Below, in pieces: positions 17,749 through 64,000 of a stretch of DNA of 64,000 nt. The notes beneath the pieces are model-generated. The model did not search any database and had not been told where the DNA came from. It worked only from the letters and a program-made list of their open reading frames with translations. A program made the translations under genes and the position numbers. How positions within the stretch are numbered: position 1 is the first letter of the stretch; the number at the start of each line of letters is the position of its first letter. This stretch comes from Patescibacteria group bacterium (lineage in GTDB: Bacteria > Patescibacteriota > Minisyncoccia > Phycocordibacterales > UBA1550): the NCBI GenBank assembly GCA_038057125.1, contig JBBUDU010000002.1, forward strand, positions 85,240 through 149,239, given 5' to 3'.

Positions 17749-18021
17749 ATGAACAAAGCAGCTATCGCTGAAATTATTCACGAGAAGATGGGAGGGACCA
17801 AAGTATCTGCAGAGCAGACACTTGACGCAATCCTTGAAGGGATGGTAAGCACCTTGAAGAAAGGTGGAGAAGTGTCAATCGCAGGACTCGGTATCTTTTC
17901 TACAAAGGCTCGCGCAGCCCGCACAGCGCGTAACCCAAAAACTGGTGAGGCTATTCAAGTAAAAGCAACAACAGTTCCAAAGTTTCGTGCCGCAAAGGCG
18001 CTCAAGGACGCAGTGAAGTAA
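17749..18021 (+). CDS. hup: DNA-binding protein HU
   Basis: 90 aa HU/IHF fold sequence (GLGIFSTKARAARTARNPKTGE). Confidence 0.9.
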   Translation: MNKAAIAEIIHEKMGGTKVSAEQTLDAILEGMVSTLKKGGEVSIAGLGIFSTKARAARTARNPKTGEAIQVKATTVPKFRAAKALKDAVK

Positions 18022-18039
18022 AGACTGCTACTCCAAAAG

Positions 18040-18075
18040 AAAACCGAGCCTCCTATGGAGGCTCGGTTTTCTTTT
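18040..18075 (+). terminator. rho-independent terminator after hup
   Basis: AAAACCGAGCCTCC-TAT-GGAGGCTCGGTTTT followed by CTTTT. Confidence 0.8.
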
Positions 18076-18078
18076 GGG

Positions 18079-18235
18079 TGCGGGATGGGCTCTCGGTCAC
18101 GAGTTACTAAGTGTGCTCGTGTGAGTACACACTGCGCGCACTAAGTACTCTCGACCCCGCCTCACTGTCGCAGAGCGACATGTTCCGGCTTTCGATTCTC
18201 CACGCAAGGCGCGCAGGCGTCTTGCTCATCCCGCA
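18079..18235. other. tRNA-end-bounded structured element, Gly locus unit A (157 nt)
   Basis: - Starts TGCGGGATGGG, the same as the 3' end of the tRNA-Gly(UCC) gene in plus coordinates.
- Ends ATCCCGCA, the inverted complement of that start.
- First 81 nt are identical to unit B.
- Contains a long imperfect hairpin and the blocks TCGGTCACGA, TCTCGACCCCG and CTTTCGATT. Confidence 0.6.
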
Positions 18236-18237
18236 CA

Positions 18238-18279
18238 ATGTAAAAATCCCCAGACCGAAACGGTTGGGGATTTTTACAT
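18238..18279. terminator. 15-bp-stem hairpin separating units A and B
   Basis: ATGTAAAAATCCCCA / TGGGGATTTTTACAT, symmetric with A/T runs on both sides. Confidence 0.55.
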
Positions 18280-18281
18280 TG

Positions 18282-18418
18282 TGCGGGATGGGCTCTCGGT
18301 CACGAGTTACTAAGTGTGCTCGTGTGAGTACACACTGCGCGCACTAAGTACTCTCGACCCCGGCTCGCCTCTTCGCTACGCTCAGTATGGCTCCGCCTTT
18401 CGATTCTCCCATCCCGCT
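18282..18418. other. tRNA-end-bounded structured element, Gly locus unit B (137 nt)
   Basis: The 5' GCGGGATGGG pairs with the 3' CCCATCCCGC. The right end TTCGATTCTCCCATCCCGC is an inverted copy of the tRNA-Gly(UCC) T-loop, T-stem and acceptor 3' strand. Confidence 0.6.
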
Positions 18419-18430
18419 ACAAAATGCAAC

Positions 18431-18456
18431 AACGCCGAAGTTTTCACTTCGGCGTT
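18431..18456 (-). terminator. hairpin immediately 3' of tRNA-Gly(UCC)
   Basis: AACGCCGAAGT / ACTTCGGCGTT stem. Confidence 0.5.
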
Positions 18457-18465
18457 GGCATTTTG

Positions 18466-18536
18466 TGCGGGATGGGAGAATCGAACTCCCGCCAAGAGTT
18501 TGGAAAACTCCTATTCTACCATTAAACTAATCCCGC
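18466..18536 (-). tRNA. tRNA-Gly (anticodon UCC)
   Basis: Hand-folded 71 nt: acceptor GCGGGAT/ATCCCGC, D arm GTTT-AATGGTA-GAAT, anticodon arm GGAGT-TTTCCAA-ACTCT, T arm GGGAG-TTCGATT-CTCCC. CCA is not encoded. Confidence 0.9.
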
Positions 18537-18636
18537 GATTAAAACCTCTCAAGACAATAGCAAAAGCACAGATGTTTCGCAAATATGTCCCCAAAACATC
18601 TGTACTACTACATACTACGACTGAAAGCCTGCCACT

Positions 18637-19521
18637 CTACCCAACAATCGATCGCACCTTCGTCACGATCTCGTCAAGCGTGAAGTTTGCCTTTACCATA
18701 AAGTCTTTTGCTCCAAGCGCCATTGCTTTATCGAGGTCTTCTTTCTGACCAAGGTTGCTCAAAATAACAACGGGAACGTCCATAATCTTTGGATCTGCTT
18801 TAATCCGCGCAAGAATTTCAAATCCATCTGTGCCGGGTAAAATAAGGTCACAGAGAATCATATTTGGCTTACGCTCAGACAAAATTGCAAACGCCGCCAC
18901 TGCGTCAATTGCGTTTTGAACATCAAACCCCTCACTCGCAAGCTTGCGCACCAAAAGCTCGCGCAAAAATTTGTCATCCTCAATAACAAGGATAAACTTT
19001 TTTTTGCCACCAGTTGATGGTGTTGTAACATCTGTCACGCCTTGCGACATTTTATAGACTGGGGCCTCTGCCACGGCTTCTGAAACCCCTGAGCTGTTTA
19101 CATTTTGTGTGCGCACACCCCATTCCCCTCTAGGAGCCGCGGCAACTCCTCCGAGTACGCGCTCTACTTTTTCAAGGACTTCGTTTGGGTCAAACACTGC
19201 TTTGATCAAAAATTCTCGCGCGCCAAGCTCTTGTGCTCGCTTTATCTCCACTGGTTGACCGGAATTTGAAATAATAATAACTGGAATATCGCGAAGTGTT
19301 GGATCTGCATGTATCTCTTCCAATACCTCAATACCACCCTTGCGCGGCATAAGGATATCCAAGAGCACGCAATCAGGCCTGACGGCGCGAATCTTTTCTA
19401 TGGCGACAATACCGTCCTCTGCTATGTCCACAACATAACCGCTCTTTTCAAGTTTTTGTGCAAGGACATCACGGAGTACCGCGTCGTCTTCCACAATGAT
19501 AATTCTTTTTTTCTCTTCCAT
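18637..19521 (-). CDS. response regulator with two receiver domains and no output domain
   Basis: Two REC modules (IIIVEDDAVLRD...VLLDILMPRKGG and ILVIEDDKFLRE...ILCDLILPGTDG). Confidence 0.85.
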   Translation of the reverse strand: MEEKKRIIIVEDDAVLRDVLAQKLEKSGYVVDIAEDGIVAIEKIRAVRPDCVLLDILMPRKGGIEVLEEIHADPTLRDIPVIIISNSGQPVEIKRAQELGAREFLIKAVFDPNEVLEKVERVLGGVAAAPRGEWGVRTQNVNSSGVSEAVAEAPVYKMSQGVTDVTTPSTGGKKKFILVIEDDKFLRELLVRKLASEGFDVQNAIDAVAAFAILSERKPNMILCDLILPGTDGFEILARIKADPKIMDVPVVILSNLGQKEDLDKAMALGAKDFMVKANFTLDEIVTKVRSIVG

Positions 19522-19612
19522 GATGATTCTGTGTTATTGAGGGTACTATTATTATAGTATAAAATTGATGTCTACGCTATCAAATTAACCTTCTGTATTA
19601 CTCCTGATCGCA

Positions 19613-21517
19613 TCATATGTTCTCTTTTTCTACCGCTTTTACCAACTCTCTTGGTAAAAGTTTTGCGATGACCGGAACCACAATAGTAAACGTTGTGCCT
19701 CCCCCCTCCACTGAATCAACCCAAATTTGCCCACCGTGTCTCATAATGATACTTTTCACGATAAACAAACCGAGTCCGGAGCCATCTGTTTGCAAGTGAA
19801 TAACGTTTGAGGCACGGAAGAATTTTGAAAACAGTTTCGCTATGTCTGCCTTTGGAATACCGACTCCGGAGTCGCTTACTTTCACTTCTACGAAGTCCCC
19901 TTTCTTTTCAACAGCTATCGTAACTTTCCCACCGGGCAATGTGTACTTCATCGCATTGTCAACGATGTTTTGAAAAGCAATAAGAAGTTTCTCGGGATCG
20001 AATGAAAAGTTATGAATATCTCCTGCGTGATTCACAAACTGTACTTCAACATTGCGCTCCTTTGAAGGGAGCTCTGTGTTTTCAACGAGGGTATTCAAGA
20101 GCTTCATAAAATCATTCTCTTCAAAATTATAACCAAACATTCCATTCTCAATACGCGAAACATTCAAGAGGTCGTTCACCAACTGAATCATTTTTTCGTT
20201 CGTCTCATACCCGCGCTTTAGCATCCCCTTTTGGTCATCATTTATTGCACCCAAATCCCCGTCGAGCAGAAGCTTGAGCACCCATTTTACGCCAGAAAGC
20301 GGCGTGCGGAGCTGATGCGCAGCTATGGAAATAAAATCAGACTTCAGTCTGTCAATCTCGCCCAAGTTTACCACCATCGAGTTGAACACATCTCCAAACT
20401 GCCCAATCTCATCGTTTGAGGTATGTTCTACTTTTTGACTAAGGTCTCCATCCGCAATCTTTCGCGCAACAAATGAATATCGTCGAATAGGCCCCACTAC
20501 TTGTCGTTCAAGGATTATCGAGAGCACAATCACGAGTATAGATGTAAAGACAACGCCGACACCGAGCAACCGGACACGAAATCCGCTGACACGGTTCTCA
20601 TAAGCGCTCTTCAATAAATGAGACTCCGACACGCCGACGATGCGAGAACCTTTTGCATTTTCAATCTTTATTGGTTTCACATACACGACAACCTCGTGTC
20701 CTTCGTGAATGCGTTCGTATTGCATGCTTTCTTTCGCTCCGGTCGCTATGTCGCGACGCGCTTGTATTTGTTCTTGGGTATCATTATCAAATTTTCTTGC
20801 GCCTTGTCCCATGTTTGCGAGAACATTAAGACTCGTATCGAGGACGACAAAATCGTGAAAAAACCCAAATTCGTCAGTTTTATTTATTTTCCCAAGCTGA
20901 GAAGCATCGTCAATAATTTTTTGCAGATACTGTGATCCGTCCTCAATTGCAATGTTTATTGCTCGTGTACTTTGCTCGACACTGGCTGAAGCAAGGTCTA
21001 GTAAACGTCTTGCCTCCAAAACGTCTTGCGAACTCTTAGACCTAGTCTTTACCTCTGTTTCAATAATATTAATAATATTATTATTGCCATCAAAAACTGG
21101 TGCGTAATGTTCAATCCTGTAATAATTTTCGTTTGTATTTGTTTTTGAAACAACCGCCTTGTTTTTAACAACCTCATTAATGGCCGCAAGTTTTGCCGCT
21201 ATGTCTTGCGGTGCGTCGCTTGAACGGGTTGTGGCAACATCAACTCCCTTTGTATCCAAAACTTCTATGTAGTTTACTCCGGAGATACGGCTTGCAAGTG
21301 TGTCTACAATCTCTTGAAGCGATCCCTTCTGTGCCGAAATCTGCGTAAACATACGTTCTACGTCTTTACGAACCAAATCTGTAACAGTACTGGTGTTGTT
21401 GATAACTTCGGTTTTTATATTTTTTGACTCAATTGTATCAATGATCCAAAATCCAAGAGTAAGAATGGTAACGACGACCACAACGAGCACAAGATTTATT
21501 TTTGTACCAAGCTTCAT
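19613..21517 (-). CDS. sensor histidine kinase (TM-sensor-TM-HAMP-HisKA-HATPase)
   Basis: HAMP (IADGDLSQKVEHTSNDEIGQF), H-box SIAAHQLRTPL, ATP-binding DSGVGIP / GSGLGLFIVKSI. Confidence 0.88.
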   Translation of the reverse strand: MKLGTKINLVLVVVVVTILTLGFWIIDTIESKNIKTEVINNTSTVTDLVRKDVERMFTQISAQKGSLQEIVDTLASRISGVNYIEVLDTKGVDVATTRSSDAPQDIAAKLAAINEVVKNKAVVSKTNTNENYYRIEHYAPVFDGNNNIINIIETEVKTRSKSSQDVLEARRLLDLASASVEQSTRAINIAIEDGSQYLQKIIDDASQLGKINKTDEFGFFHDFVVLDTSLNVLANMGQGARKFDNDTQEQIQARRDIATGAKESMQYERIHEGHEVVVYVKPIKIENAKGSRIVGVSESHLLKSAYENRVSGFRVRLLGVGVVFTSILVIVLSIILERQVVGPIRRYSFVARKIADGDLSQKVEHTSNDEIGQFGDVFNSMVVNLGEIDRLKSDFISIAAHQLRTPLSGVKWVLKLLLDGDLGAINDDQKGMLKRGYETNEKMIQLVNDLLNVSRIENGMFGYNFEENDFMKLLNTLVENTELPSKERNVEVQFVNHAGDIHNFSFDPEKLLIAFQNIVDNAMKYTLPGGKVTIAVEKKGDFVEVKVSDSGVGIPKADIAKLFSKFFRASNVIHLQTDGSGLGLFIVKSIIMRHGGQIWVDSVEGGGTTFTIVVPVIAKLLPRELVKAVEKENI

Positions 21518-21576
21518 ATTACTTTACAGTATACACCACTAATGGAGAAAAATGATTGGTGACATGTGGAGAATTG

Positions 21577-21668
21577 TGCCCTCATGAGGAGTCTGCCAAG
21601 CGCTCGCTCGACCCGTTTTGTTAAACGGGTAAACCCGAGCTCACTTTCGACTCCTCGTTCGCGCTACA
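21577..21668. other. degenerate tRNA-end-derived element next to tRNA-Arg(CCG)
   Basis: Starts with a 17-nt copy (TGCCCTCATGAGGAGTC) of the tRNA-Arg(CCG) 3' end. Contains GCGCTCGCTCGACCC, a hairpin ACCCGTTT-TGTT-AAACGGGT, and an inverted T-loop copy TTTCGACTCCTC. There is no closing acceptor complement. Confidence 0.45.
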
Positions 21669-21712
21669 AAAACATACTCCAAAAATGCTTCGCATTTGTT
21701 TCGTTCTTTTTG

Positions 21713-21784
21713 TGCCCTCATGAGGAGTCGAACCTCAATTACAAGCTTCGGAAGCTTGTGTCCTATCCGTTGAACGATAAGGGC
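21713..21784 (-). tRNA. tRNA-Arg (anticodon CCG)
   Basis: Hand-folded 72 nt: acceptor GCCCTTA/TGAGGGC, anticodon arm CAAGC-TTCCGAA-GCTTG, T arm TGAGG-TTCGACT-CCTCA. Confidence 0.88.
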
Positions 21785-21835
21785 TTTTTGGTACTGTGGT
21801 CCGTTGTACCACGAGCGCAGGTTTGGAAAAGTAGA

Positions 21836-22915
21836 CTAATTAATCTCAATGTCGATATGCCGCACCGTGGGTATTTCTTTTTTAATCCGCGCCTCAAGCT
21901 CGTCGATGCGCGTACCGATAACGCGCGGCACACGATCGGTAAACTCCACGCAAAAGCGCACAAACTCCTGATAGTCCTCTTTTGCGATTTCATAATCCTC
22001 TTTTAGCATTACACCATTTGAAACTTCTCGAAAAAGAGCCGAGCCATTTATCTCCACCTCGCACTTTGCTCGATATTTTCCAAGCTCCACGACAGATGAT
22101 TTAAAATCGTACACACGCTCAATCATTGGGTCAGATACGAGCATTTCAATAATACGATCTTTCACTTCTTCAGGAATTGATTTCTCCACTAAAAAACGTT
22201 TATTTTTTAATATCAAAACTACCGCGACCCAAGCCAAAAGCCCGCCGATAACAATAGAACCCATTGCGTCCCAAACAGGGTTGCCGGTAACGTACGAGAG
22301 TCCGACAGAAACAGTGGCGACAAAAATGCCAAATACAGCAACACCATCTTCATACACAACAGCAAGAACCGTCGGGTCGCCATCGCGAAGCGTGTCGCCA
22401 AGCGTTGTCCCGTCCCCTCTCTGGCTCCGCAATTCACGAAATGCAATCAAAAATGTAATAAGCTCAACAATAAACGAAATTGCAAGAATAAAAAATATTA
22501 TCGGTTCAAACACAAGCTCACTTGGACTAAAGAGTGTTGAAACACCGTGGTATATAGTAATACCGGCGCCTACAAAGAAAACTCCGCAGGCTGAAATAAG
22601 CGCCCAAAAGAAACGTTCTAGTCCGTATCCATAAGAAGAGTCCTCGTCTGGAGCACGACGGCTCTTCACAATACCAACCATCAGAAGCGCTTGATTGGCC
22701 GTGTCTGCAAAACTATGCACGGCCTCAGAAAAAAGAGAGCTCGACCCTGAGATGGCAAAACCAATGGTTTTAAGGATCGTAATAACAAAATTACCCAAAA
22801 GTGCCGCAATAACTGAAACAAAGCCGGGCTCACGTCTGTGGATAACTGACGATTTACCAAATTTCATGGCTTGGCCATGAATTATTCCACTATTAAGTTT
22901 TTCTTTTTTCTTCAT
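21836..22915 (-). CDS. cation diffusion facilitator (CDF) family transporter
   Basis: 359 aa with six TM helices, a HSFADTANQ motif in TM2, and a C-terminal cytoplasmic domain. Confidence 0.85.
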   Translation of the reverse strand: MKKKEKLNSGIIHGQAMKFGKSSVIHRREPGFVSVIAALLGNFVITILKTIGFAISGSSSLFSEAVHSFADTANQALLMVGIVKSRRAPDEDSSYGYGLERFFWALISACGVFFVGAGITIYHGVSTLFSPSELVFEPIIFFILAISFIVELITFLIAFRELRSQRGDGTTLGDTLRDGDPTVLAVVYEDGVAVFGIFVATVSVGLSYVTGNPVWDAMGSIVIGGLLAWVAVVLILKNKRFLVEKSIPEEVKDRIIEMLVSDPMIERVYDFKSSVVELGKYRAKCEVEINGSALFREVSNGVMLKEDYEIAKEDYQEFVRFCVEFTDRVPRVIGTRIDELEARIKKEIPTVRHIDIEIN

Positions 22916-22950
22916 ACATCGCTCTTACGAGCTCTTCCGGTTAAAGCCCT

Positions 22951-23123
22951 TGTCGGGGTGCCCTATGTCCAAGACAAGATTCTACTGAATCTGAATCCCC
23001 GCCTGCCACCGCCCAAAGTTACATAAGTAAAATACAACACCGCCATTTATATTCCAACTGTTTGTAGTATTGAAACTAACCCAATTTGCGGTTAGGCTTT
23101 GGCGGGCAGGGAACTCGGCCTAT
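22951..23123 (-). pseudogene. tRNA-Pro 3'-part pseudo-copy interrupted in the T-loop
   Basis: TGTCGGGGTGCC (22951-22962) and GAACTCGGCCTAT (23111-23123) are exact copies of 23259-23270 and 23278-23290. They are separated by 148 nt instead of 7 nt. Confidence 0.55.
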
Positions 23124-23260
23124 TTTGACGAGAGAGGAGCGTGTGGAAGTGTACCCACTTACACAACGTCCGAGCGATGTTAAAATATTGTACCCGTTAT
23201 ATCTAAATTTCTTATGGAAATTTCCACGGAAGCATCCAATGCTTCCGATTAAAAACTGTG

Positions 23261-23331
23261 TCGGGGTGCCGAGAATCGAACTCGGCCTATCTGCTCCCAA
23301 AGCAGACGTACTACCGATATACTACACCCCG
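23261..23331 (-). tRNA. tRNA-Pro (anticodon UGG)
   Basis: Hand-folded 71 nt: acceptor CGGGGTG/CACCCCG, anticodon arm TCTGC-TTTGGGA-GCAGA, T arm CCGAG-TTCGATT-CTCGG. Confidence 0.88.
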
Positions 23332-23344
23332 ACACAATTTTTAA

Positions 23345-23460
23345 TCCCAAAGCAGACGTACTACCGATATATAACTGAATACAATATATTCTGCGCTCGC
23401 TCGGAAATTAAAACTTGCTAGTTTTATTTCGCTCACTCGCTTGAATATACTACACCCCGA
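23345..23460 (-). pseudogene. tRNA-Pro 5'-half pseudo-copy with a 73-nt insertion in the D-loop
   Basis: A 27-nt exact copy (23345-23371 = 23295-23321) and a 16-nt exact copy (23445-23460 = 23317-23332). ATATA is present on both sides of the insert but only once in the intact gene. Confidence 0.6.
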
Positions 23461-23508
23461 TTTAAACTGTAAGTCATATCTTTAGTCTCGCGTGAAACCG
23501 TTACGGAA

Positions 23509-23991
23509 CTATAGCACGATATTATCTAAAAATCTAATGCGCGCTCGTCGATTTTTTGCGTCAATCTCCACCGTAATAGCATCAAAAATCCATTCAGGCT
23601 CCCCTTTTGGGTACTTTTCAAGCAAGTAAACTTGAATTGTCCGTGCCAGTCTCTTCAGTTTATGCTGGTGAATGTTATCTTCTGGTCGATAACTGTCCGT
23701 TACTGAATTAGCAAATTCTGAGTCAGCAGACTTCACGCCTGGGGCGCAGACCCTTGGGCGCAGGGAAACATTCACCTTATTACATAGGTCCGACCTATGT
23801 AAATTTTCACGTGAAACACTTTTTACCTCAATAAAATGGAGGATTTTACCTTTTTTGGCAATAATATCGATTTCCCCACATTTTTTAAGATAATTTTGCC
23901 CAATTACTAAAAACCCCTTATTTTGTAAGTATTTTACGGCAATATCCTCCCCCAAACGCCCTATTTTCTGCTTTTCTGTAGGTTCAGCCAT
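23509..23991 (-). CDS. yraN: YraN-family (UPF0102) endonuclease-like protein with ~35-aa internal extra segment
   Basis: GRLGEDIAVKYL...CGEIDIIAKKGKILHFIEVKS ... FDAITVEID. The track start is a TTG; the ATG at 23991 is preferred. Confidence 0.75.
   Translation of the reverse strand: MAEPTEKQKIGRLGEDIAVKYLQNKGFLVIGQNYLKKCGEIDIIAKKGKILHFIEVKSVSRENLHRSDLCNKVNVSLRPRVCAPGVKSADSEFANSVTDSYRPEDNIHQHKLKRLARTIQVYLLEKYPKGEPEWIFDAITVEIDAKNRRARIRFLDNIVL
23803..23818. promoter_or_regulatory. parS-like site (14/16 to TGTTTCACGTGAAACA) inside yraN
   Basis: ATTTTCACGTGAAACA; its palindromic core encodes VSRE in the yraN frame. Confidence 0.4.
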
Positions 23992-24038
23992 TACTACACA
24001 ATTATACCCAATGTTCAATGATTAACATAAAAAGAGTG

Positions 24039-24054
24039 TATTTCACGTGAAACA
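24039..24054. promoter_or_regulatory. parS-like site (15/16 to consensus)
   Basis: TATTTCACGTGAAACA, intergenic, upstream of yraN. Confidence 0.6.
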
Positions 24055-24359
24055 CCTCGTTTTTAGACTATATTTAGGTCGAAAACAAGCATTTTTCTAA
24101 AAACTCCATATTTATCAAGGGTTTCTTGGGTTTTAGGTGACAATTTTCCAATGTCTTGAATCTTAGTCTACTGGCTTTTTATGTCCTTTATCAACAGTAT
24201 CCACATAGTTATCCACAGTTTTGAGCTTTTTTCCCCATATTTTCCCGCTTCTGACCGTTGACAGGCTGTGTCAGAATAGTGGTTTTTGTGAAAAATGTCC
24301 TTTACAAAAAACTTATTGTACTGGTGCGGCTCTCGATAACGAACAATTGATTTTTTATT

Positions 24360-24433
24360 TGGTGCGGGTACGGAGAATCGAACTCCGATCTCGTCCTTGG
24401 CAAGGACGCGTTCTACCACTAAACCATACCCGC
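24360..24433 (-). tRNA. tRNA-Gly (anticodon GCC), CCA encoded
   Basis: Hand-folded: acceptor GCGGGTA/TACCCGC, anticodon arm CGTCC-TTGCCAA-GGACG, T arm CGGAG-TTCGATT-CTCCG, 3' ACCA. Confidence 0.9.
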
Positions 24434-24477
24434 AAACTTTCTCAACCATTATACATTTTTTTTATCTTTTTGGAAGA

Positions 24478-24618
24478 GCGCCCGGAGGGATCGGTCACGA
24501 ATATTTTTCTTGTCGTCACAAGAAAAATTTCTCGACCCCGACTCGCCCGTTTTTTCTGCTGAAAAAACATGGCTCCGTCTTTCGATTTACTCACGCGAGC
24601 TTTGCTCGCTCGGGCGCA
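24478..24618. other. tRNA-end-bounded structured element, Arg(UCG) locus (141 nt)
   Basis: The 5' GCGCCCG... pairs with ...CGGGCGC at the 3' end; these are direct and inverted copies of the tRNA-Arg(UCG) 3' end. It shares the blocks TCGGTCACGA, TCTCGACCCCG, CTCGCC, ATGGCTCCG and CTTTCGATT with Gly unit B. The hairpins between the blocks differ in sequence. Confidence 0.6.
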
Positions 24619-24620
24619 GA

Positions 24621-24654
24621 AATAATAAAAACCCCATCAGGGGTTTTTATTATT
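24621..24654 (-). terminator. hairpin between tRNA-Arg(UCG) and the element
   Basis: AATAATAAAAACCCC-ATCA-GGGGTTTTTATTATT. Confidence 0.6.
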
Positions 24655-24656
24655 TG

Positions 24657-24729
24657 TGCGCCCGGAGGGAATCGAACCCCCAACCCCTTGGTTCGAAGCC
24701 AAGTACTCTATCCGTTGAGCTACGGGCGC
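24657..24729 (-). tRNA. tRNA-Arg (anticodon UCG)
   Basis: Hand-folded 73 nt: acceptor GCGCCCG/CGGGCGC, anticodon arm CTTGG-CTTCGAA-CCAAG, T arm GGGGG-TTCGATT-CCCTC. Confidence 0.9.
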
Positions 24730-24818
24730 AAAAATTTGACAGGTTTCTCGTGAAACCTACACAGAGAGCATACCGCAAATTGGTAAAAAAGCCAAAAATA
24801 CACTAGACTATAACCTAT

Positions 24819-26309
24819 ATGATAGGCGCTTCAATAAAAACGAATATCTCGTACAAAATCCCTAAAGAAGTTTCACATGTAACCGAAACCTTGCGAAATG
24901 CAGGGTTTGAGGCGTATCTTGTGGGTGGATGCGTGCGCGACATCTTGCAGGAAATCAAGCCAAAAGACTGGGACGCAACAACAAACGCAACACCGGAACA
25001 AATCCAAGCCCTTTTTGAAAATTCTTTTTACGAAAACGATTACGGAACAGTTGGTATAGTAAATGAAACAGATGATGAAACACTTAAGGTTGTTGAAGTA
25101 ACTCCGTACCGAAGCGAAGGCGCATACACTGACAAGCGACGCCCGGATAGCGTTTCGTTTCACGGGAAACTAGACGAGGATCTAAAACGTCGCGATTTCA
25201 CAATTAACGCAATAGCGTATGATGAATCTAAAGGACATCTAACGGACATGTTTGGTGGTATAAAGGACATAAAGGACAAAGTCTTAAGGACAGTAGGGGA
25301 TCCAAGAGAACGCTTCAACGAAGATGCCCTCCGTGTCCTTCGCGCCGTGCGCCTTGCTACCGATCTTGGTTTCACGATTGAGATAGAGACTCAAAATGCA
25401 CTCACTGAAAAAGCTTCAGACCTGAAACATGTCTCTATGGAGCGTATTCGTGATGAATTCACCAAAATGGTAATGACAAAAAATCCAATGGTTGGCATTG
25501 TAATGTGCCAGAAACTTGGCATCCTTAAATATATTGCGCCGGATATCGAACGTGGGATTGGCATTGAGCAAAATGGCGACCATATTTACACCGTATGGGA
25601 ACACAACCTCCGCGCGCTCCAGCACTCGGCAGACCGTGGATGGCCGCTCCATGTACGACTCGGAGCGCTCTTTCATGATGTTTCAAAACCGGAAACACGA
25701 CGCTGGTCTCCCGAAAAAGACGACTGGACCTTTTATGGTCACGACGTAGTTGGCGGACGTGTTGCAAAAAAAGCTCTGGAAAATTTAAAATATCCTAAAA
25801 AAATCGTTGAGGTTGTGTCCGCGCTTGTGCGTTATCATTTGTTTTTCTCTGATATCGAAAAAATTACGCTTTCTGCGGTACGTCGTATTGTAAAAAACGT
25901 CGGACCTGACAATGTTTGGGACTTGATGAAAGTTCGAGCGTGCGACCGTATCGGCATGGGTCGTCCAAAAGAAGCGCCGTATCGTTTGCGTAAATATGAA
26001 TCAATGATTGATGAGGCGATGCGCGCGCCGGTGTCTGTGGGAATGCTCAAAATTGACGGGCAAAAAATAATGGAAGTTACCCATGAAACACCGGGGCCAA
26101 AACTCGGTTTTATCCTCCACGCGCTCCTCGAAGAAGTGCTTGATGACCCGGAGCGCAACACGGAAGTTTTTCTCGTGAAACGAACACTCGAACTCGCAAA
26201 ACTTCCGATTGATGAATTAAAAAAACTGGGGGAGGAAGGTAAGGAGAAAAAAGAAGAGGAAGAGGAAAAAGAGCTCGCTGTGATTCGCAAGCGTCATGGA
26301 GTAAAGTAA
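24819..26309 (+). CDS. cca: CCA-adding enzyme / poly(A) polymerase family nucleotidyltransferase with HD domain
   Basis: LVGGCVRD, RRDFTINA, HD motif FHDVSKP. Lys/Glu-rich C-terminal tail. Confidence 0.88.
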   Translation: MIGASIKTNISYKIPKEVSHVTETLRNAGFEAYLVGGCVRDILQEIKPKDWDATTNATPEQIQALFENSFYENDYGTVGIVNETDDETLKVVEVTPYRSEGAYTDKRRPDSVSFHGKLDEDLKRRDFTINAIAYDESKGHLTDMFGGIKDIKDKVLRTVGDPRERFNEDALRVLRAVRLATDLGFTIEIETQNALTEKASDLKHVSMERIRDEFTKMVMTKNPMVGIVMCQKLGILKYIAPDIERGIGIEQNGDHIYTVWEHNLRALQHSADRGWPLHVRLGALFHDVSKPETRRWSPEKDDWTFYGHDVVGGRVAKKALENLKYPKKIVEVVSALVRYHLFFSDIEKITLSAVRRIVKNVGPDNVWDLMKVRACDRIGMGRPKEAPYRLRKYESMIDEAMRAPVSVGMLKIDGQKIMEVTHETPGPKLGFILHALLEEVLDDPERNTEVFLVKRTLELAKLPIDELKKLGEEGKEKKEEEEEKELAVIRKRHGVK

Positions 26310-58455: not shown

Positions 58456-58601
58456 AATTTCTTACTCTACACTATAATTCCCAAAAAATCTAGTCCCTTG
58501 CCCACCCAACTTTTCAGTATTGTAATGATCAATAAGCTTTCCAAAACAGGACTCTTTGTCATACAATACCCTAGTTAATAGGTAAAAAGTTGGGTGGGTA
58601 A

Positions 58602-58621
58602 ATATCCACAAGTTATCCACA
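58602..58621 (+). promoter_or_regulatory. two tandem DnaA boxes upstream of dnaA
   Basis: ATATCCACA (58602-10, 8/9) and TTATCCACA (58613-21, 9/9). Confidence 0.6.
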
Positions 58622-58652
58622 CCCTATTCACCGACTCGTCCACCTTGCCTCT

Positions 58653-58681
58653 TTCACTATTTGTTTGACTAAGAATATAAT
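58653..58681 (+). promoter_or_regulatory. candidate dnaA promoter
   Basis: TTCACT-N17-TATAAT (58676-81). Confidence 0.4.
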
Positions 58682-58705
58682 AGGGAAACGGGAATAAACA
58701 CTCTT

Positions 58706-60064
58706 ATGATAAACAACGCGCAACTTTGGGAAAAAACACTGTTCGATCTTGAGGGAGAACTTTCCCGAGCAAATTTCAGTACATGGTTTAAAAATACCGC
58801 AATATTAAAACAAGATGACGGAATGATTATTGTTGGTGTTCCAAATGAGTTTGTAAAAGATTGGCTTCAAAATAAATTTCATAAAACAATACTGCGTTCT
58901 CTTCGTAACCTCTCCGAAAACATACGCAGTGTAGAATATTCAGTTTGCAAAATAGAAGAACCTAAAACAGAAAAGAGGGTGGTGGAACAAATAAAATTTC
59001 CGCAAGGTGCCGAGCTACCATTGGAAAATCTTTATATTAATAAAGAAGATGGGCTAAACCCCCGCTACACATTTAATAATTTTATTATTGGTGCTTTCAA
59101 CGAGCTCGCATATGCCGCATCGCAAGCAATCCTAAAAAAGGTCGGCACCAATGTATACAACCCGCTATTTATATATGGGAACACTGGTCTCGGAAAAACG
59201 CATCTTATTCAAGCAATCGGAAATGAGGTTAAGAAACATTATCCGAACAAGCGCGTTTTTTACACAACCTCTGAAAAGTTCTCTGTTGATTACATAAACT
59301 CTGTTGGGCAAGGTTCAAAAGCGATGGCTATTTTCAAGAATAAATATCGTGTATATGACCTCCTTATTATGGACGACATTCAGTTTTTGTCGAACAAAGA
59401 AAAAACACAAGAGGAGCTTTTTCACATCTTCAACGAGCTCTATCACAACAATAAACAAATTATTTTCTCGTCCGACAAGCATCCAAACTACATCCCCGCT
59501 CTTGAGGCTCGCCTTAAATCGCGTTTTAGTGCGGGAATGATTGTGGACATTCAAGAGCCGGAGTACGAATCCCGTCTCGCAATTTTGCGCGCAAAAGCAG
59601 AAACTCAAAAGTTTTTCCCTCCGGAAGAAGTTATCGAATACCTTGCTTCTTCCGTGCAAGGGAACATTAGGGAGCTTGAGGGTCTTTTAAATGGGATCAT
59701 TTGTCAATCACAGATTAAAAATAGGAACCTTACATTGAATGAAATAAAGCCATTCATTAAAAACACCGCAAAACCCAAAAAACTCTTATCGGTAAAGGAA
59801 ATAGTGAAGGTTGTGTGTGATTTTTACAGCATTGAGGAGTCATTTGTGTATGAAAAAACAAGAAGGAAGGAGATATTGAAACCGCGGCAAATAGCGATGT
59901 TTATTCTTCGTGAAGACTTCAATATCTCTTATCCAACGATTGGTCAAAAGCTTGGTGGTCGAGACCATACCACTGTAATGCATTCTTGTGAAAAAATAAA
60001 AATTGATATCAAAAACGACCTCTCTCTTATGCAGGAGGTTGACCAAATACGAGCGATGTTTTAA
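58706..60064 (+). CDS. dnaA: chromosomal replication initiator protein DnaA
   Basis: 452 aa with GNTGLGKTHL, LLIMDDIQFL, and domain IV RQIAMFILRE...GGRDHTTVMH. Confidence 0.95.
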   Translation: MINNAQLWEKTLFDLEGELSRANFSTWFKNTAILKQDDGMIIVGVPNEFVKDWLQNKFHKTILRSLRNLSENIRSVEYSVCKIEEPKTEKRVVEQIKFPQGAELPLENLYINKEDGLNPRYTFNNFIIGAFNELAYAASQAILKKVGTNVYNPLFIYGNTGLGKTHLIQAIGNEVKKHYPNKRVFYTTSEKFSVDYINSVGQGSKAMAIFKNKYRVYDLLIMDDIQFLSNKEKTQEELFHIFNELYHNNKQIIFSSDKHPNYIPALEARLKSRFSAGMIVDIQEPEYESRLAILRAKAETQKFFPPEEVIEYLASSVQGNIRELEGLLNGIICQSQIKNRNLTLNEIKPFIKNTAKPKKLLSVKEIVKVVCDFYSIEESFVYEKTRRKEILKPRQIAMFILREDFNISYPTIGQKLGGRDHTTVMHSCEKIKIDIKNDLSLMQEVDQIRAMF

Positions 60065-60316
60065 TTATATACGTTATCTTGTTAAATTAGTGTTGATAAG
60101 TAAAAATGTTTATGTGTATAACTATAAAAAAATAATTAGTAAACCTTTATGAATAAATTTTATAAACAAATTAACAGTAATTATCCACATAAACCTATTT
60201 TTATAAATACCAATTAATACATACAACAAAAGCGTATTAATGACTTATCCACTTATCAACATATATAATAGTAATAATAAGTATTTATATATAAAATATT
60301 AAATACAATAAATAAT
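60065..60316. promoter_or_regulatory. candidate oriC (DnaA-box cluster + AT-rich unwinding region)
   Basis: - Boxes: 60091-99 (reverse TTATCAACA), 60113-21 (reverse TTATACACA), 60181-89 (TTATCCACA, perfect), 60245-53 (TTATCCACT), 60253-61 (TTATCAACA).
- The stretch 60262-60316 is almost pure A/T. Confidence 0.7.
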
Positions 60317-61417
60317 ATGAATTTTACCTGTAATAGAGATAGTATACAAAAATGTGTAATGAGTGCTGATAGGGTAACTGGAAAAAATTTATCATTACCA
60401 ATTCTTAATTCCGTATTTTTAGAAACAAATAAAAAATCATTAATTATTAGGGCTACAAACCTTGAAGTTGGTGTAGAATTCCAAATTCCAGCGGAAATTA
60501 AATCAGAAGGAAGTACTGCAATACCAGGATCTCTTTTTTATAATATACTCGCGAGTCTTCCTGATGAAGAAAATATAACCATTTCAGTTTCAAATAATGT
60601 TTGTAAAATAATAACAAAAACAAAAAATATAACTATCAAAGGTTTTATTCCTGATGATTTTCCAACAATACCAATTATTACAGAAGGGGAAAGTTTAACA
60701 ATATCATCACAAAATTTTATTCATGGAGCCAAATCGGTTTTAATGAGCGCGGCAATATCCGACATTAAACCAGAAATTTCAAGTGTTTATATATATCAAA
60801 ACGGAAAATCATTAGTATTTGTGGCCACAGATTCGTTTAGATTGGCGGAGAAAAAAATAAACTACACGGGAGAACCATTTTCACATGGTGTAATTGTTCC
60901 AATAAAAAACATTATTGAAATAATAAAAATTTTTGAGTCAGTAAATGAAAATATTTTATTTAAAATAACAAAAACACAAATTTCATGCGTTAGTAAGTCT
61001 GTATATGTAACATCAAGGGTTATTCAAGGTGTATATCCGGATTATGAGCAGATTTTACCAAAAAACAGCACAACGGAGGTTATTATTTTAAAACAAGACC
61101 TTATTAACACACTTAAATTATCAACACTTTTTTCCGACAAGTTCAATAAAATCCAATTCATCGTCGACCCTGCGCAAAAAAAATGTTTAATTACCACAAA
61201 AAATTCCGACATCGGTGAAACAGAAGCAAGTCTTACGGCAACAATATCCGGAGAGCCGATAGAGATTTCATTAAATGGAAAGCATTTATTCGATTGTTTA
61301 AATGCAATAACGGAAGACAGTATCACGATTCAATGTAGTGGGGCAAGTAAACCGGCAGTAATTCGTGGTGTAGGGGATAAATCGTTTACATACCTAACGA
61401 TGCCGCTTACGCGCTAG
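60317..61417 (+). CDS. dnaN: DNA polymerase III beta sliding clamp
   Basis: 366 aa with three-domain clamp length and the position after dnaA; LEVGVEF, ATDSFRLAE. Confidence 0.92.
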   Translation: MNFTCNRDSIQKCVMSADRVTGKNLSLPILNSVFLETNKKSLIIRATNLEVGVEFQIPAEIKSEGSTAIPGSLFYNILASLPDEENITISVSNNVCKIITKTKNITIKGFIPDDFPTIPIITEGESLTISSQNFIHGAKSVLMSAAISDIKPEISSVYIYQNGKSLVFVATDSFRLAEKKINYTGEPFSHGVIVPIKNIIEIIKIFESVNENILFKITKTQISCVSKSVYVTSRVIQGVYPDYEQILPKNSTTEVIILKQDLINTLKLSTLFSDKFNKIQFIVDPAQKKCLITTKNSDIGETEASLTATISGEPIEISLNGKHLFDCLNAITEDSITIQCSGASKPAVIRGVGDKSFTYLTMPLTR

Positions 61418-61430
61418 TAACAAACCCACA

Positions 61431-61685
61431 ATGCTCCAGTTAAACCAACTTCTTGAACGGTTTAAAAACCTTACAAATAGTGAAAAAGTAAAAAAACAGT
61501 TGATCGTTGAGGTTTTGGTAAACAACAAAATCCCCGCTAGTGTAAGCCAAGTATCCCTGTCAAAAAACACACTATTTATAAAAACTCAACCAATCATAAA
61601 AACAGAGGTACTTCTCAAAAAAGAAATAATACTTAAACAAATACAAAAAATCCCCGGATTATCTATCGTTTCAAATATTCAATAA
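61431..61685 (+). CDS. DUF721/DciA-like small protein (tentative)
   Basis: 84 aa, immediately after dnaN, where DUF721 genes commonly sit. Sequence support is weak. Confidence 0.45.
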   Translation: MLQLNQLLERFKNLTNSEKVKKQLIVEVLVNNKIPASVSQVSLSKNTLFIKTQPIIKTEVLLKKEIILKQIQKIPGLSIVSNIQ

Positions 61686-61704
61686 GTAGTGGGTCAAGCA
61701 ATAC

Positions 61705-64000
61705 CTACTCCACTCGCAATTGCGCCGAATAAACTCCTTTATTTAAAATCGAATCGTAGGCGATAGCGGTAATCGTATTTAAGGTTGAAATGGAAGCAAC
61801 ACCCCTTGGGTTGAAAGAAAAAATAAATGGCGCTGCAGTTCTTTTACCAACAAGTTCGTCGTTTACAAAAAACTCAACACTGCTGATGGGGTATCTGCTT
61901 GAGACAGAAACTGTCGCAGTCATGTTCTCGTCCGCCGAGTGTGTTGAAACGAAGTCAATTCCGGAAACAGAAACAACAGGAATAGACTCTGGTGTACGAC
62001 TGGTGTCATACCCAGTAGGAATACCGCTACGGTCGCCCTCACGGATGTTTTGAGAGAGAACCCACTCACGCACCGGTATCTCCCAAAGATTGTACTGAGA
62101 ATCGTTTTGGGGGGTTGCTGGCGGTAGTCCTCGGGGATCTTCCTTTCTGACCCAATGAAGAATATTATGCACTTCTGGCACAACCACAACACCCTTCATT
62201 TCGACGGGAGTTAACGGTGTTGCAAGCCCACCAGAAGACTTGTCAATAATATATTTTTCACCACCTTGCCATACGCCCTGAAGTGGAGCAGGAAGAACAG
62301 TCAAGTCTTCTTTTTCCGGAACAATAAAACGCTCAGACGGAATAAGTTTCATTGCCTCTTCCATAAACGCTCGCCAAACAGGGGTAATAATGAATCCGGC
62401 AGTATTTTTGTGCATAGGTGAGTTGTTGTTATTGCCGGCCCACATGCCAACCACGATATTAGGCGTATATCCTATTGTCCACACATCACGGTAATCGTTT
62501 GTTGTACCGGTTTTTACAGCCACGTCTTTGCCTGGGAAATGAAGGGCGGAGTTGACGCCGAACATCGGAGTCCTCGCCGCATTATCTGAAAGAATGTTAG
62601 TTATTTTCCGCGCAACTTCAACAGGGATGACTTCCTCGCTCGACTCTTTAAACTCCTCGATAAGGTTTCCATCCTTGTCTTCAACACGGAGAATTGTTTC
62701 TGTTTTGTTGCGCACACCGTCGTTTGCGAAAACACTGTATGCTCCAGTAATTTCAAGAAGTGAAACTTCGCCTCCGCCGAGGACAAGCGTGAGCCCGTAT
62801 TGTGCCGGATTGGTCAAGCTCGTAATACCCATCCGCTTAACGGTATTCAAAGAGTCCTGTATACCTGCAAGGTAAAGTGTTTTAACCGACGGAACATTGA
62901 GCGACTGCGCGAGAGAGCTCCGGAGAGAAACCGGCCCGCGATATTTACCATCATAGTTTTCCGGCACGTAGCAGTCTTCCGGCTTTATGTTTGGGGAAAA
63001 CGGAATACCTTTTGCGTCGCAGTTTGTACTGAAGTTTGTTCGAAGGTCAAAAAGGACAGTTTCCGGTGTGTACCCCTTCATAAACGCAGTCGCGTACACA
63101 AATGGTTTAAAGGTAGAGCCGGGCTGACGGTTTGGCGCAAGGGAAACATTGAAGTTACCTTCATTTTTCATGTCAAAATAGTTTCGCGAGCCGACCATGG
63201 CTAGCAATTGTCCGTTTTTTGGGCTGATGGCGACAAGCCCCATATTCTTTGCCTCAAAATTCTTTTCCATGCTTGGTCCAAAACGGTCAACTGCCTCCTC
63301 CGCCTTTTTTTGGAGCTCATAGTCGAGTGTGGTGATGACCTTGTAGCCATTTTCCTCGACAGCGCGCTCCCCGTATTTTTCAACAAGTTGCTCCTTGACC
63401 CAGATGACAAAATGCGGCGCCTTAACACCCTTTGATTCTCGTGGCAGGAATTCAACTTTTTCCATGCGGGTGGCTTCGTACTCAGCGGTGGCAATAAGGC
63501 CGAGCTCGTGCATACGACGCAATACAAGATTTTTTCGATCATCAAGTTTATCGCGGTTGTTGCCATAAGGGGAAAAGTAGGTAGGAGCGTTGGGGATTGA
63601 CGCTAGGTAGGCAGATTGCGCAAGCGTTAAGTCTTTTGCGGTCTTTCCAAAAAAAGTAAAACTTGCCTCGCCAATACCATAGATACTTCCACCGTACGGT
63701 ATCTCATTTAAGTAAAGCGTAAGAATCTCGTCTTTTGTAAATGCTTGTTCAAGCCTGAAAGACAGAATAATTTCTTTTAGCTTGCGAGTGATGAGTTTCT
63801 CGTCGGTAAGAAGCGTTTTCTTTATTACCTGTTGTGTGATCGTGGATCCACCACCACGTGTTCCACCGTATAGTACTGCACGCGCAATACCGCGAATACT
63901 AATACCGCCATGTTTGTAAAACTCAAAGTCCTCAATCGCAATTACCGCATTTTTAAGTGATTGCGGTATCGCGTCAAAAGGAACAATTGTACGTTTTACA
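61705..64000 (-). CDS. class A penicillin-binding protein (PBP1A-type), N-terminus beyond window end
   Basis: The reading frame stays open upstream of the track Met (63522) to the window edge. Own translation there gives the GT51 motifs EDFEFYKHGG and GGSTITQQ. Transpeptidase motifs STFK, SLN and KTGTT are present. Confidence 0.9.
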   Translation of the reverse strand, partial: VKRTIVPFDAIPQSLKNAVIAIEDFEFYKHGGISIRGIARAVLYGGTRGGGSTITQQVIKKTLLTDEKLITRKLKEIILSFRLEQAFTKDEILTLYLNEIPYGGSIYGIGEASFTFFGKTAKDLTLAQSAYLASIPNAPTYFSPYGNNRDKLDDRKNLVLRRMHELGLIATAEYEATRMEKVEFLPRESKGVKAPHFVIWVKEQLVEKYGERAVEENGYKVITTLDYELQKKAEEAVDRFGPSMEKNFEAKNMGLVAISPKNGQLLAMVGSRNYFDMKNEGNFNVSLAPNRQPGSTFKPFVYATAFMKGYTPETVLFDLRTNFSTNCDAKGIPFSPNIKPEDCYVPENYDGKYRGPVSLRSSLAQSLNVPSVKTLYLAGIQDSLNTVKRMGITSLTNPAQYGLTLVLGGGEVSLLEITGAYSVFANDGVRNKTETILRVEDKDGNLIEEFKESSEEVIPVEVARKITNILSDNAARTPMFGVNSALHFPGKDVAVKTGTTNDYRDVWTIGYTPNIVVGMWAGNNNNSPMHKNTAGFIITPVWRAFMEEAMKLIPSERFIVPEKEDLTVLPAPLQGVWQGGEKYIIDKSSGGLATPLTPVEMKGVVVVPEVHNILHWVRKEDPRGLPPATPQNDSQYNLWEIPVREWVLSQNIREGDRSGIPTGYDTSRTPESIPVVSVSGIDFVSTHSADENMTATVSVSSRYPISSVEFFVNDELVGKRTAAPFIFSFNPRGVASISTLNTITAIAYDSILNKGVYSAQLRVE

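Follow-up and report, generated by a model that had tools for sequence, protein, structure and literature searches.

The genes for tRNA-Gly(GCC) and tRNA-Arg(UCG) of a Patescibacteria group bacterium, both on the minus strand, enclose a 141-nucleotide (nt) element whose ends resemble the end of the neighboring tRNA, and the locus raises the question of what such an element is and how its ends came to fit the gene beside it. It lies at 24478-24618 of a stretch of 64,000 nt, hereafter the window (NCBI GenBank assembly GCA_038057125.1, contig JBBUDU010000002.1, positions 85,240 to 149,239). Window coordinates are positions in this stretch, and L-numbers (L003, L250, etc.) are labels for loci from other genomes or contigs. 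A first-pass annotation had described the element on the plus strand, and had read it as a functional RNA or a templated mobile element on account of its blocks, its stems and its ends.

We show herein that the Arg-locus element is one intact copy of a family of Patescibacteria elements, ~100-170 nt long, which lie directly 3' of tRNA or transfer-messenger RNA (tmRNA) genes in the gene's own orientation. The family is large and phylum-wide, and apparently undescribed. The conserved blocks, the compensated stems and the templated ends that had prompted the original reading are all borne out by it. The strand is not, as it is the minus strand, sense to the tRNA, that folds.

Templating of the ends by the adjacent gene

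Read on the plus strand, the element runs from GCGCCCG (24478-24484) through the block TCGGTCACGA (24491-24500), the hairpin ATTTTTCTTGT/ACAAGAAAAAT (24503-24528), the block TCTCGACCCCG-a-CTCGCC (24530-24547), the hairpin GTTTTTTC/GAAAAAAC (24549-24568), the block ATGGCTCCG-t-CTTTCGATT (24569-24587) and the hairpin GCGAGC/GCTCGC (24595-24609) to CGGGCGC (24611-24617). This layout, counted in the first-pass annotation as five blocks, three hairpins and acceptor copies, is present throughout at the places given there. The two variable letters within the blocks (a and t here) pair with each other and covary in three copies of the window, as a/t, g/c and c/g.

The template for the ends is tRNA-Arg(UCG) (24656-24729, minus strand). 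On the plus strand, the left end of the element equals the tRNA gene at 24658-24670 over 13 nt (GCGCCCGGAGGGA), and then continues with the TCG of the T loop. The match exceeds the 7-nt acceptor, so that the ends follow the Arg tRNA, as had been claimed, over a greater length than was claimed. CTTTCGATT is an inverted copy of the T loop, and the left end is a repeat of the tRNA, so that two of the "conserved blocks" derive in part from the tRNA. Within one genome, the ends differ with the tRNA: the Arg locus has GCGCCCG... and the Gly locus GCGGGAT....

Throughout the family, the two ends form a closing helix, P1, that reproduces the stacked acceptor/T-arm minihelix of the neighbor, with 7 + 5 base pairs (bp) and the discriminator included. 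Its distal arm was an exact 19-nt copy of the neighbor in 31 of 90 cases; the arm usually goes on into the trailer for 1-5 nt, nearly always taking in C74. The 5' strand of P1 is the templated complement of the neighbor's 3' end. Where the distal arm is unlike the tRNA, the opposite arm compensates at 69 positions versus 30, so pairing in P1 either matters in itself or is mechanically restored. The inverted copy of the tRNA end and trailer must have arisen at the DNA level.

A three-way junction on the tRNA-sense strand

On the minus strand, the whole element was matched at 85.5 bits (E 4.6e-21) by R1, a covariance model built from an alignment of element copies. Going 5' to 3' from the tRNA, copies share a common plan. 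A palindromic, terminator-like spacer hairpin comes first, which at the Arg locus was read from the sequence at 24619-24656, with no strand assigned. Its arms extend into the tRNA end and the inverted copy, giving a near-perfect palindrome of ~2 x 28 nt; spacers of a similar kind occur at other loci, and that of the Gly locus scored as terminator-like on both strands. The complement of the discriminator and acceptor 3' strand follows (outer 5' strand of P1, an inverted copy of these, 24611-24618, minus), then often a side hairpin, P4 (24593-24610, minus), and then a strand complementary to the T stem and T loop (...AAUCGAA). In the Arg copy, the junction strand and inner 5' strand of P1 (24580-24592, minus) read GAGUA-AAUCGAA-A in sense, a complement templated on the T loop and T stem of the tRNA in which two bases are substituted; the ortholog at L250 has the exact complement, GAGGG-AAUCGAAAG. 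After AG comes hairpin P3 (24540-24579, minus), with the base G-N-C/G-N'-C, the internal loop GGA/GA and a variable stem. After GG comes hairpin P2 (24493-24537, minus), with an invariant base GGUCGAGA/UCGUGACC containing a G-U pair and an A.G mismatch, a variable stem and, here, the loop GACG. The last part repeats the tRNA directly, from C56 through the discriminator. In the Arg element, this 3' strand of P1 (24478-24493, minus) comprises the acceptor CGGGCGC, the T stem CCCUC and CGAU, with one T-loop base fewer than tRNA-Arg(UCG).

In this fold, a three-way junction replaces the T loop and bears the two variable hairpins P3 and P2, and its invariant junction and internal-loop bases are rich in tandem G.A. 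A hairpin in the P4 position was present in 73 of 124 copies, 33 of them with the sense loop CUGC; in the Arg copy, P4 is shortened and has an AAA loop. It is constantly inserted where the acceptor stem meets the T stem, the point from which the D and anticodon arms leave a real tRNA.

Support for the fold came from 100 distinct copies. Standard pairs filled 97.2% of cells, compared with 77.4% in shuffles, and both sides had changed in 390 cells versus 125. The covariation score was 0.47, against 0.126 for shuffled and 0.03-0.09 for slid controls. Double changes were found in 12 of 20 pairs, and seven base pairs of P2 are among the pairs changed on both sides. At the base of P3, the N:N' pair occurred in five Watson-Crick forms (GA/TC 39, GC/GC 34, GG/CC 26, GT/AC 6 and AG/CT 5). 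The unpaired junction bases, for their part, are invariant across at least 240 loci of very diverse Patescibacteria. The window copies fold far better than shuffles on both strands, with z of -3.1 to -6.4 under RNA parameters and -3.5 to -6.3 under DNA parameters; RNA and DNA energies both score well.

The folding strand is the minus, tRNA-sense strand. It gave the better fold in 107 of 122 variable P2 parts and in 87 of 115 variable P3 parts, and 112 predicted G-U pairs lie on it versus 51 on the other strand. The purine-rich G.A internal loops exist on the sense strand only. Hairpin tips are likewise purine-rich in sense, with tandem G.A and the pattern GA-GC-GNA-GC-GA; C-GNA-G is the commonest tip, and GCGNAGC occurred 69 times in sense and twice in antisense.

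A family spread across Patescibacteria

The family was scanned for by a core-block pattern only (TCGGTCACGA, 20-50 nt, CGACCCCNNCTC, 15-45 nt, CTCCG) in a collection of one genome per species, in JGI metagenomes and in IMG/VR viral contigs. At least 120 loci were found in the genome collection, all from Patescibacteria save four chance matches, and at least 119 in the metagenomes; the viral contigs of IMG/VR gave no match. Both counts are lower bounds, and the ratios derived from them hold among the matches listed. The chance matches (L042, L062, L088 and L099) lie in genomes of high guanine-plus-cytosine (GC) content and were not recovered by R1 where R1 was run. R1 recovered the window copies at 68-86 bits and ~17 further divergent copies in other loci, with no chance match among the loci searched. 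The genomes belong to Parcubacteria-group lineages such as Moranii-, Yonath-, Kaiser-, Wolfe-, Taylor-, Nomura-, Zambryski- and Yanofskybacteria, and many further pattern-bearing assemblies carry the label Saccharibacteria. The stems hold in hundreds of genomes, so the structured-RNA reading of the first-pass annotation withstands the failure of stems elsewhere that was to have refuted it. The first-pass annotation had allowed that the blocks might belong to a widespread, already described repeat; widespread it is, but no description of it was found in Rfam 15 or in the literature searched.

The position of the element is as regular as its core. Among the 96 listed genome matches with a tRNA within 400 nt, 89 have a tRNA of the same sense immediately upstream, at a median of ~70 nt; in the other seven, the next downstream tRNA happens to be nearer, as at the Arg copy of the window. 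The listed metagenome contigs showed this placement in 89 of 105 evaluable cases and the opposite orientation in none. At least 35 anticodons and all 20 amino acids are represented among the listed genome matches. The element also lies behind tmRNA, at five or more genome loci and seven or more metagenome loci, where its ends copy the tmRNA 3' end, and behind a tRNA that is split by a group I intron (L086 6188-6428). In the sampled loci, 96 of 206 tRNAs bear an element. About one element per locus is owed to ascertainment, so most other tRNAs are without one. Presence is sporadic, some copies standing in tandem and some being decayed.

The gene for the CCA enzyme (24819-26309) lies nearby, 90 nt away; its nearest relatives are proteins from metagenome-assembled genomes of Paceibacteria, Yonathbacteria and Nomurabacteria, and the same gene was matched in a Hainich groundwater contig. 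This enzyme and the product of a XerC-like gene had been put forward as candidate binders of the conserved blocks. The closeness of either gene is incidental: the family is found behind tRNAs for all amino acids and behind tmRNA, with neighboring genes of any kind.

Further copies in the window

ARAGORN and the Rfam tRNA model find five tRNA genes in the window, on the minus strand in every case. Behind tRNA-Gly(UCC) (18465-18536) stand two units in tandem, both on the minus strand. Unit B (18283-18418; R1 77.1 bits) has no P4, and its 10-bp closing helix copies the Gly tRNA. Unit A (18080-18236; R1 68 bits) has P4. The five blocks of the Arg element, 45 nt in total, are identical in unit B, which agrees with the earlier comparison, and close in unit A. 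The hairpins had been said to be unrelated in sequence and still self-complementary, and this too is what we see: stems vary with compensation, the middle hairpin of unit B being weak. Exact copies of TCGGTCACGA and TCTCGACCCCG occur in the window only within these three copies, and shuffles gave ~0.6 to 2.8 matches with one mismatch allowed.

Two lesser copies were found, both on the minus strand. A degenerate member behind tRNA-Arg(CCG) (21712-21784) lies at 21576-21656 and is matched weakly by R1 (E 1.1); it starts with GAGGAGUCGAAAG, its last 17 nt copy the end of that tRNA exactly (3' end), and most core blocks are gone. Beside tRNA-Gly(GCC) (24360-24433), a remnant of the distal end of an element is left at 24324-24342 (GTGCGG-CTCTCG-ATAACGA on the plus strand). 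Fuller copies lie behind the same tRNA in L245, L003, L005 and L246, and the terminator alone in L004 and L248. The window thus has two tRNAs with intact copies, one of them with two in tandem, one tRNA with a degenerate copy and one with a remnant.

Some features of the surroundings were noted in passing. Directly after the Arg-locus element, an extended -10 promoter (TGTATAAT) of tRNA-Gly(GCC) lies at 24440-24470 (minus), and the sequence ttggaagag at the distal border of the element is kept in relatives and marks the insertion edge. Between the UPF0102 gene and tRNA-Gly(GCC), three adjoining 9-mers resembling DnaA boxes (TTATCAACA, GTATCCACA and TTATCCACA; 24188-24217) form a block that is kept at the same site in L003, L004, L005 and L248. 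Nine further sites of this type are clustered at 58600-62500, in the part of the window with the lowest GC (0.36), which may be a replication origin. About 150 nt downstream of tRNA-Pro (23260-23331, minus) there is a 13-nt direct duplicate of the variable-loop/T-arm region of that tRNA (AUAGGCCGAGUUC; ~23112-23127, minus); it has no relation to the element family, and may be an old attachment (att) scar.

Conservation and turnover among relatives

Behind tRNA-Arg(UCG) and tRNA-Gly(GCC), elements of this kind are also found in three relatives at syntenic loci. One of the three has a different tRNA-Arg acceptor (GCCCUCA), and the ends of its element have changed likewise. The tRNA-Arg(UCG) beside the CCA-enzyme gene comes in two very unlike sequence types among relatives whose CCA enzymes are 78-90% identical. 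One type is found in L003, L005, L246, L248, L249 and L251, and the other in the window, L004, L245 and L250. The ends of the element match whichever type is there, and the distribution of the two suggests that the tRNA gene, or a cassette of tRNA plus element, was replaced by recombination. The long-P2 module of the Gly units of the window was found again behind tRNA-Arg in L003 and L251.

The closest comparison is with L250, from the same aquifer, where the CCA enzyme is 87% identical, the tRNA is one base off that of the window and the two elements are orthologs. Every block persists, as does the GACG loop of P2, and the stems have changed with compensation, while the spacer and the distal flank are unalignable. 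Since the blocks were kept as the flanks diverged, they are conserved in place. Copies in L248, L003, L004 and L245, on the other hand, were mutated, truncated or replaced by a gene. Conservation in place is thus combined with a birth-and-death pattern of copies.

Precise pairs of filled and empty orthologous sites were sought in the relatives, and only rearranged or imprecisely deleted sites were found. Two loci harbor large inserts. At L009 (1060-7600), an insert of ~6.7 kb that encodes a large serine recombinase adjoins a partly masked tRNA and parts it from two identical tandem elements that still bear the 19-nt end of this tRNA. At L017 (1188-3906), open reading frames of IS3-family transposases lie between tRNA-Ser(UGA) and an element with an exact copy of its end; the spacer region may attract insertion sequences.

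RNA or folded DNA

The reading that we favor, though no more than tentatively, is that of a putative RNA made by read-through, capped by a tRNA minihelix, released by tRNA-end processing and active through its junction, with ends kept in register by fold-back of the DNA. Transcription from the tRNA or tmRNA promoter would pass the weak terminator hairpin, and the RNA downstream would fold into the minihelix-capped module. RNase P could then release it at the 5' foot of P1 and an RNase Z-type 3' endonuclease after the discriminator, and CCA might be added to the released module. The invariant junction would be the working part, as a protein-binding or catalytic site. The ends would be kept matched to the tRNA by fold-back or template-switch copying of DNA over two nested palindromes, one consisting of the tRNA end, the spacer and the inverted copy, and the other of the inverted copy, the core and the direct copy. 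The same copying could yield tandem duplication, as well as re-tailoring when the tRNA changes. In favor of an RNA are the fixed orientation relative to a transcribed gene, the tRNA-like topology, the copied discriminator and C74, the invariant unpaired bases of the junction and the blocks conserved in place.

Several observations weigh against an RNA. A hairpin like an intrinsic terminator stands between the tRNA and the element, and no conserved promoter of the element was found, so that any expression would depend on read-through. The tips are mostly C-GNA-G triloops, a motif far stabler in DNA than in RNA (PMC13037366), and GNRA and UNCG loops are rare. G-U makes up only ~1.5% of cells at covarying positions. 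The palindromes are long and nearly perfect, and template switching in palindromes can yield "compensated" changes without selection. The T loop, the usual contact of RNase P, RNase Z and CCA enzymes, is replaced. Lastly, a minority of tRNAs have the element and its copies decay, which excludes an essential role. RNA and folded single-stranded DNA (ssDNA) are the two main readings, and the chemistry of the tips fits ssDNA at least as well as RNA.

As ssDNA, the family would consist of non-autonomous mobile or integrative elements whose P1 rebuilds the 3' end of the tRNA or tmRNA gene as an attachment site, which we regard as a close rival, if a doubtful one. The sense strand would become accessible on the lagging-strand template or be excised as a dumbbell-like circle of ~190 nt, a recombinase or nuclease acting in trans would recognize the junction, and integration in the manner of CTX-phi/XerCD or attC would give the observed order of tRNA end, spacer, inverted copy, core and direct copy. 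The 3' end of a tRNA or tmRNA gene is the classical attachment site of tRNA-targeting recombinases, and such genes are reportedly favored targets of integrases (Williams, 2002); here, a direct repeat of the tRNA or tmRNA 3' end does bound the inserted DNA. GCGNAGC/C-GNA-G mini-hairpins, strongly strand-biased here (69 versus 2), are characteristic of working ssDNA sites, among them the G4 origin and ssiA, and the scarcity of G-U at covarying pairs and the length and near-perfection of the palindromes point the same way. So do the tandem arrays, the sporadic presence, the decayed copies and remnants, the P2 and P3 modules common to different tRNA loci, and a terminator placed before an element for whose transcription nothing obvious is provided. 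Yet no recombinase, transposase or longer autonomous relative was found beside or inside the copies, both large inserts (the IS3 copies and the serine-recombinase island) are unrelated, and IMG/VR has no match. Site-specific systems normally keep one core site, whereas the ends of this family differ for each of at least 35 tRNAs. The remnant at tRNA-Gly(GCC) of the window reflects imprecise deletion, not clean excision, and conservation of unpaired blocks in place between orthologs is not what a resident selfish copy would predict.

A bolder version of both readings appears rather unlikely. The element may be a new type of self-propagating, geneless ssDNA replicon or integrative module of ~190 nt, a rod or dumbbell of spacer hairpin, P1 and three-way junction that attaches by a folded copy of the end of a tRNA or tmRNA gene and re-templates this site on any tRNA beside which it lands. 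As an RNA, it may instead have in its invariant junction the core of a new ribozyme or ribonucleoprotein, which acts on tRNA 3' ends through the built-in 19-nt antisense arm.

Less probable still is a cis-acting trailer, in which the antisense arm pairs either with the 3' end of the tRNA or with the downstream mimic arm; such a switch, perhaps set by a binder of the junction, would control the 3' maturation, termination or decay of that tRNA or tmRNA. The element is strictly adjacent and oriented, conserved in place, and exactly complementary to the 3' end of its neighbor, often extending into the trailer, and the two pairing partners are mutually exclusive. Moreover, tRNA genes here do not encode CCA, so 3' processing is obligatory. 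A device of this kind is hard to reconcile with the many tRNAs of the same genomes that have no element, with the distal units of tandem arrays, which are far from the tRNA, and with the two intact units of L009 that lie 6.7 kb from theirs; a duplex of 28 bp that includes mature tRNA sequence would also endanger the tRNA.

That the family is a functionless by-product seems very improbable. Terminator palindromes would grow by template switching during replication, and a hairpin-rich filler would hitch-hike by recombination. Extension of palindromes accounts for the inverted copy of the tRNA end and trailer, and for apparent compensation without selection, and decayed copies do exist; it leaves unexplained the junction bases that are invariant over at least 240 loci, the fixed place and conserved loop of P4, the strong strand bias and the blocks conserved in place beside diverged flanks. 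Finally, scars of repeated integration and loss of islands or prophages, with duplicated att cores left behind, would fit the ~19-nt direct repeat from T loop to 3' end, the usual extent of a tRNA att core, and the island with a large serine recombinase at one of these sites (L009), but the idea is close to refuted by the mere ~130-200 nt between the repeats, the same structured core at no fewer than 35 tRNAs, the additional inverted copy, and a covariation and strand bias foreign to att arms.

Patescibacteria account for much of bacterial diversity and have minimal genomes, thought to contain little spare DNA, and yet hundreds of them keep this module. Should it prove to be an RNA, it would be a new, widespread class with customized tRNA-mimic ends, and an entry to the maturation of tRNAs without encoded CCA. 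Should it be a mobile ssDNA element, its choice of target would be new, as it copies the target into its own stem. In either case it can be put to the test, as its coordinates are exact, a covariance model exists and copies number in the hundreds. Many of the apparent partial duplications of tRNAs in candidate phyla radiation assemblies, which can confuse tRNA annotation and binning, are explained by it as well.

Resemblance to known systems

At gathering score, Rfam 15 finds only the five tRNAs in the window. With E up to 10, region 17900-24800 gave only chance matches of microRNA type on spacer hairpins, and 19 further loci gave only tmRNA, tRNA, group I intron and LOOT, none of them on an element. 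The LOOT RNA (RF03000) scored above gathering in L009 (3852-3985) and L103 (1534-1651). Literature searches on the family found no description.

Several known classes can be set aside. ARAGORN and the tRNA model give only five normal tRNAs, which speaks against an intron-bearing, permuted or split tRNA; in a split or permuted tRNA, moreover, the 5' arm would be the tRNA's own 5' half, whereas that of the element complements its 3' arm. Group I introns of Patescibacteria tRNAs, recently reported in tRNA-Asn/Asp, sit in the anticodon loop (PMC13011429), and the intron model has no match on the element, which rejects an intron remnant. A hammerhead needs CUGANGA and GAAA strands and an NUH site; the junction strands of the element are GAAAG, GG and none, and Rfam gave no match. 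The defining features of a T-box or of other ribozymes are lacking, and the Rfam families of Y RNA, twister, hatchet and pistol likewise gave no match on the element with E up to 10. Tandem G.A could form in P3 (GGA/GA) and in the tips (GA-GC-GNA-GC-GA), but a canonical kink-turn has a bulge of 3 nt, and here it is 0-1. A phage origin was rejected as IMG/VR has no match, and an autonomous long version as the kilobase inserts, the IS3 copies of L017 and the serine-recombinase island of L009, are unrelated mobile DNA.

Among functional RNAs, a close likeness is rtT RNA (RF00391), the tyrT-distal repeats of E. coli, which stand in tandem downstream of a tRNA and each close with its 3'-terminal ~19 nt, directly repeated. 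These units are thought to be freed from the transcript of the tRNA operon by tRNA-processing nucleases. Unlike the present family, rtT is confined to a single enterobacterial operon, and is not known to have an inverted copy of the tRNA end or a junction core common to many tRNAs; RF00391 shows no similarity to the window elements at E up to 10. The mimicry of acceptor and T stem with a 3' discriminator is shared with mascRNA/menRNA, the t-elements of plant mitochondria and viral 3' tRNA-like structures. Within longer transcripts, such mimics recruit RNase P, RNase Z and the CCA enzyme. They have a fixed sequence and keep a T loop or elbow, whereas the helix of the element is re-templated on each tRNA, and its T loop, divided into AAUCGAA ... 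CGAUU, gives way to a three-way junction of ~100 nt. Vertebrate CORE-SINEs also combine a deeply conserved core with tRNA-derived modules that differ by subfamily. They are, however, eukaryotic, dependent on RNA polymerase III and LINEs, and spread genome-wide, and their tRNA part is a promoter-bearing 5' head rather than a copy of the 3' end of an adjacent gene.

Among folded-DNA sites, attP(+) of CTX-phi, used by XerCD, and integron attC are strand-specific imperfect palindromes whose stem rebuilds a duplex target, a description that may also suit the present family, and tandem arrays are common. They are ~60-150 nt long, and after integration one arm adjoins the regenerated target. In our family, on the contrary, no R/L or dif-like boxes were noticed by eye, no recombinase was identified, and the stem differs with each tRNA. 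Both the bias between strands and the gene end copied in P1 fit folded-ssDNA sites, and RNA folding accounts for them as well. As for the tips, GCGNAGC mini-hairpins are extraordinarily stable as DNA, their RNA counterparts being much weaker, and their natural occurrences are ssDNA priming sites, namely the complementary-strand origins of phages G4, St-1 and alpha3, and ssiA of RSF1010 (PMC13037366). Like these signals, the element is a one-strand cluster of ~140 nt with about three hairpins that have tips of the GCGNAGC type. The G4-type signals lie in phage or plasmid origins and have no closing helix derived from a tRNA, whereas our copies are chromosomal and lie behind tRNA genes.

An att-type direct repeat of the gene 3' end bounds the element DNA; a duplication left by an integrative element was nonetheless rejected, given that no integrase or cargo, but only ~130-200 non-coding nt, lies between the repeats, and that the same core recurs at 35 or more tRNAs. 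The family also has much in common with REP/REPIN, BOX, Correia and RPE sequences and miniature inverted-repeat transposable elements (MITEs), all of them short, intergenic, hairpin-forming, modular and variable in copy number. Those elements often overlap terminators, and their function or mobilizing agent is often unknown. No cognate transposase (RAYT, DDE or Y1) or autonomous relative was present beside or inside any copy of ours, whole genomes not having been scanned. The identical terminal inverted repeats that a classical MITE or REP has within a genome were not found, and only the 3' flanks of tRNA and tmRNA genes are targeted. In elements of the REP, BOX and MITE types, constant terminal repeats enclose a varying interior; in the present family, it is the interior junction that is constant and the ends that vary.

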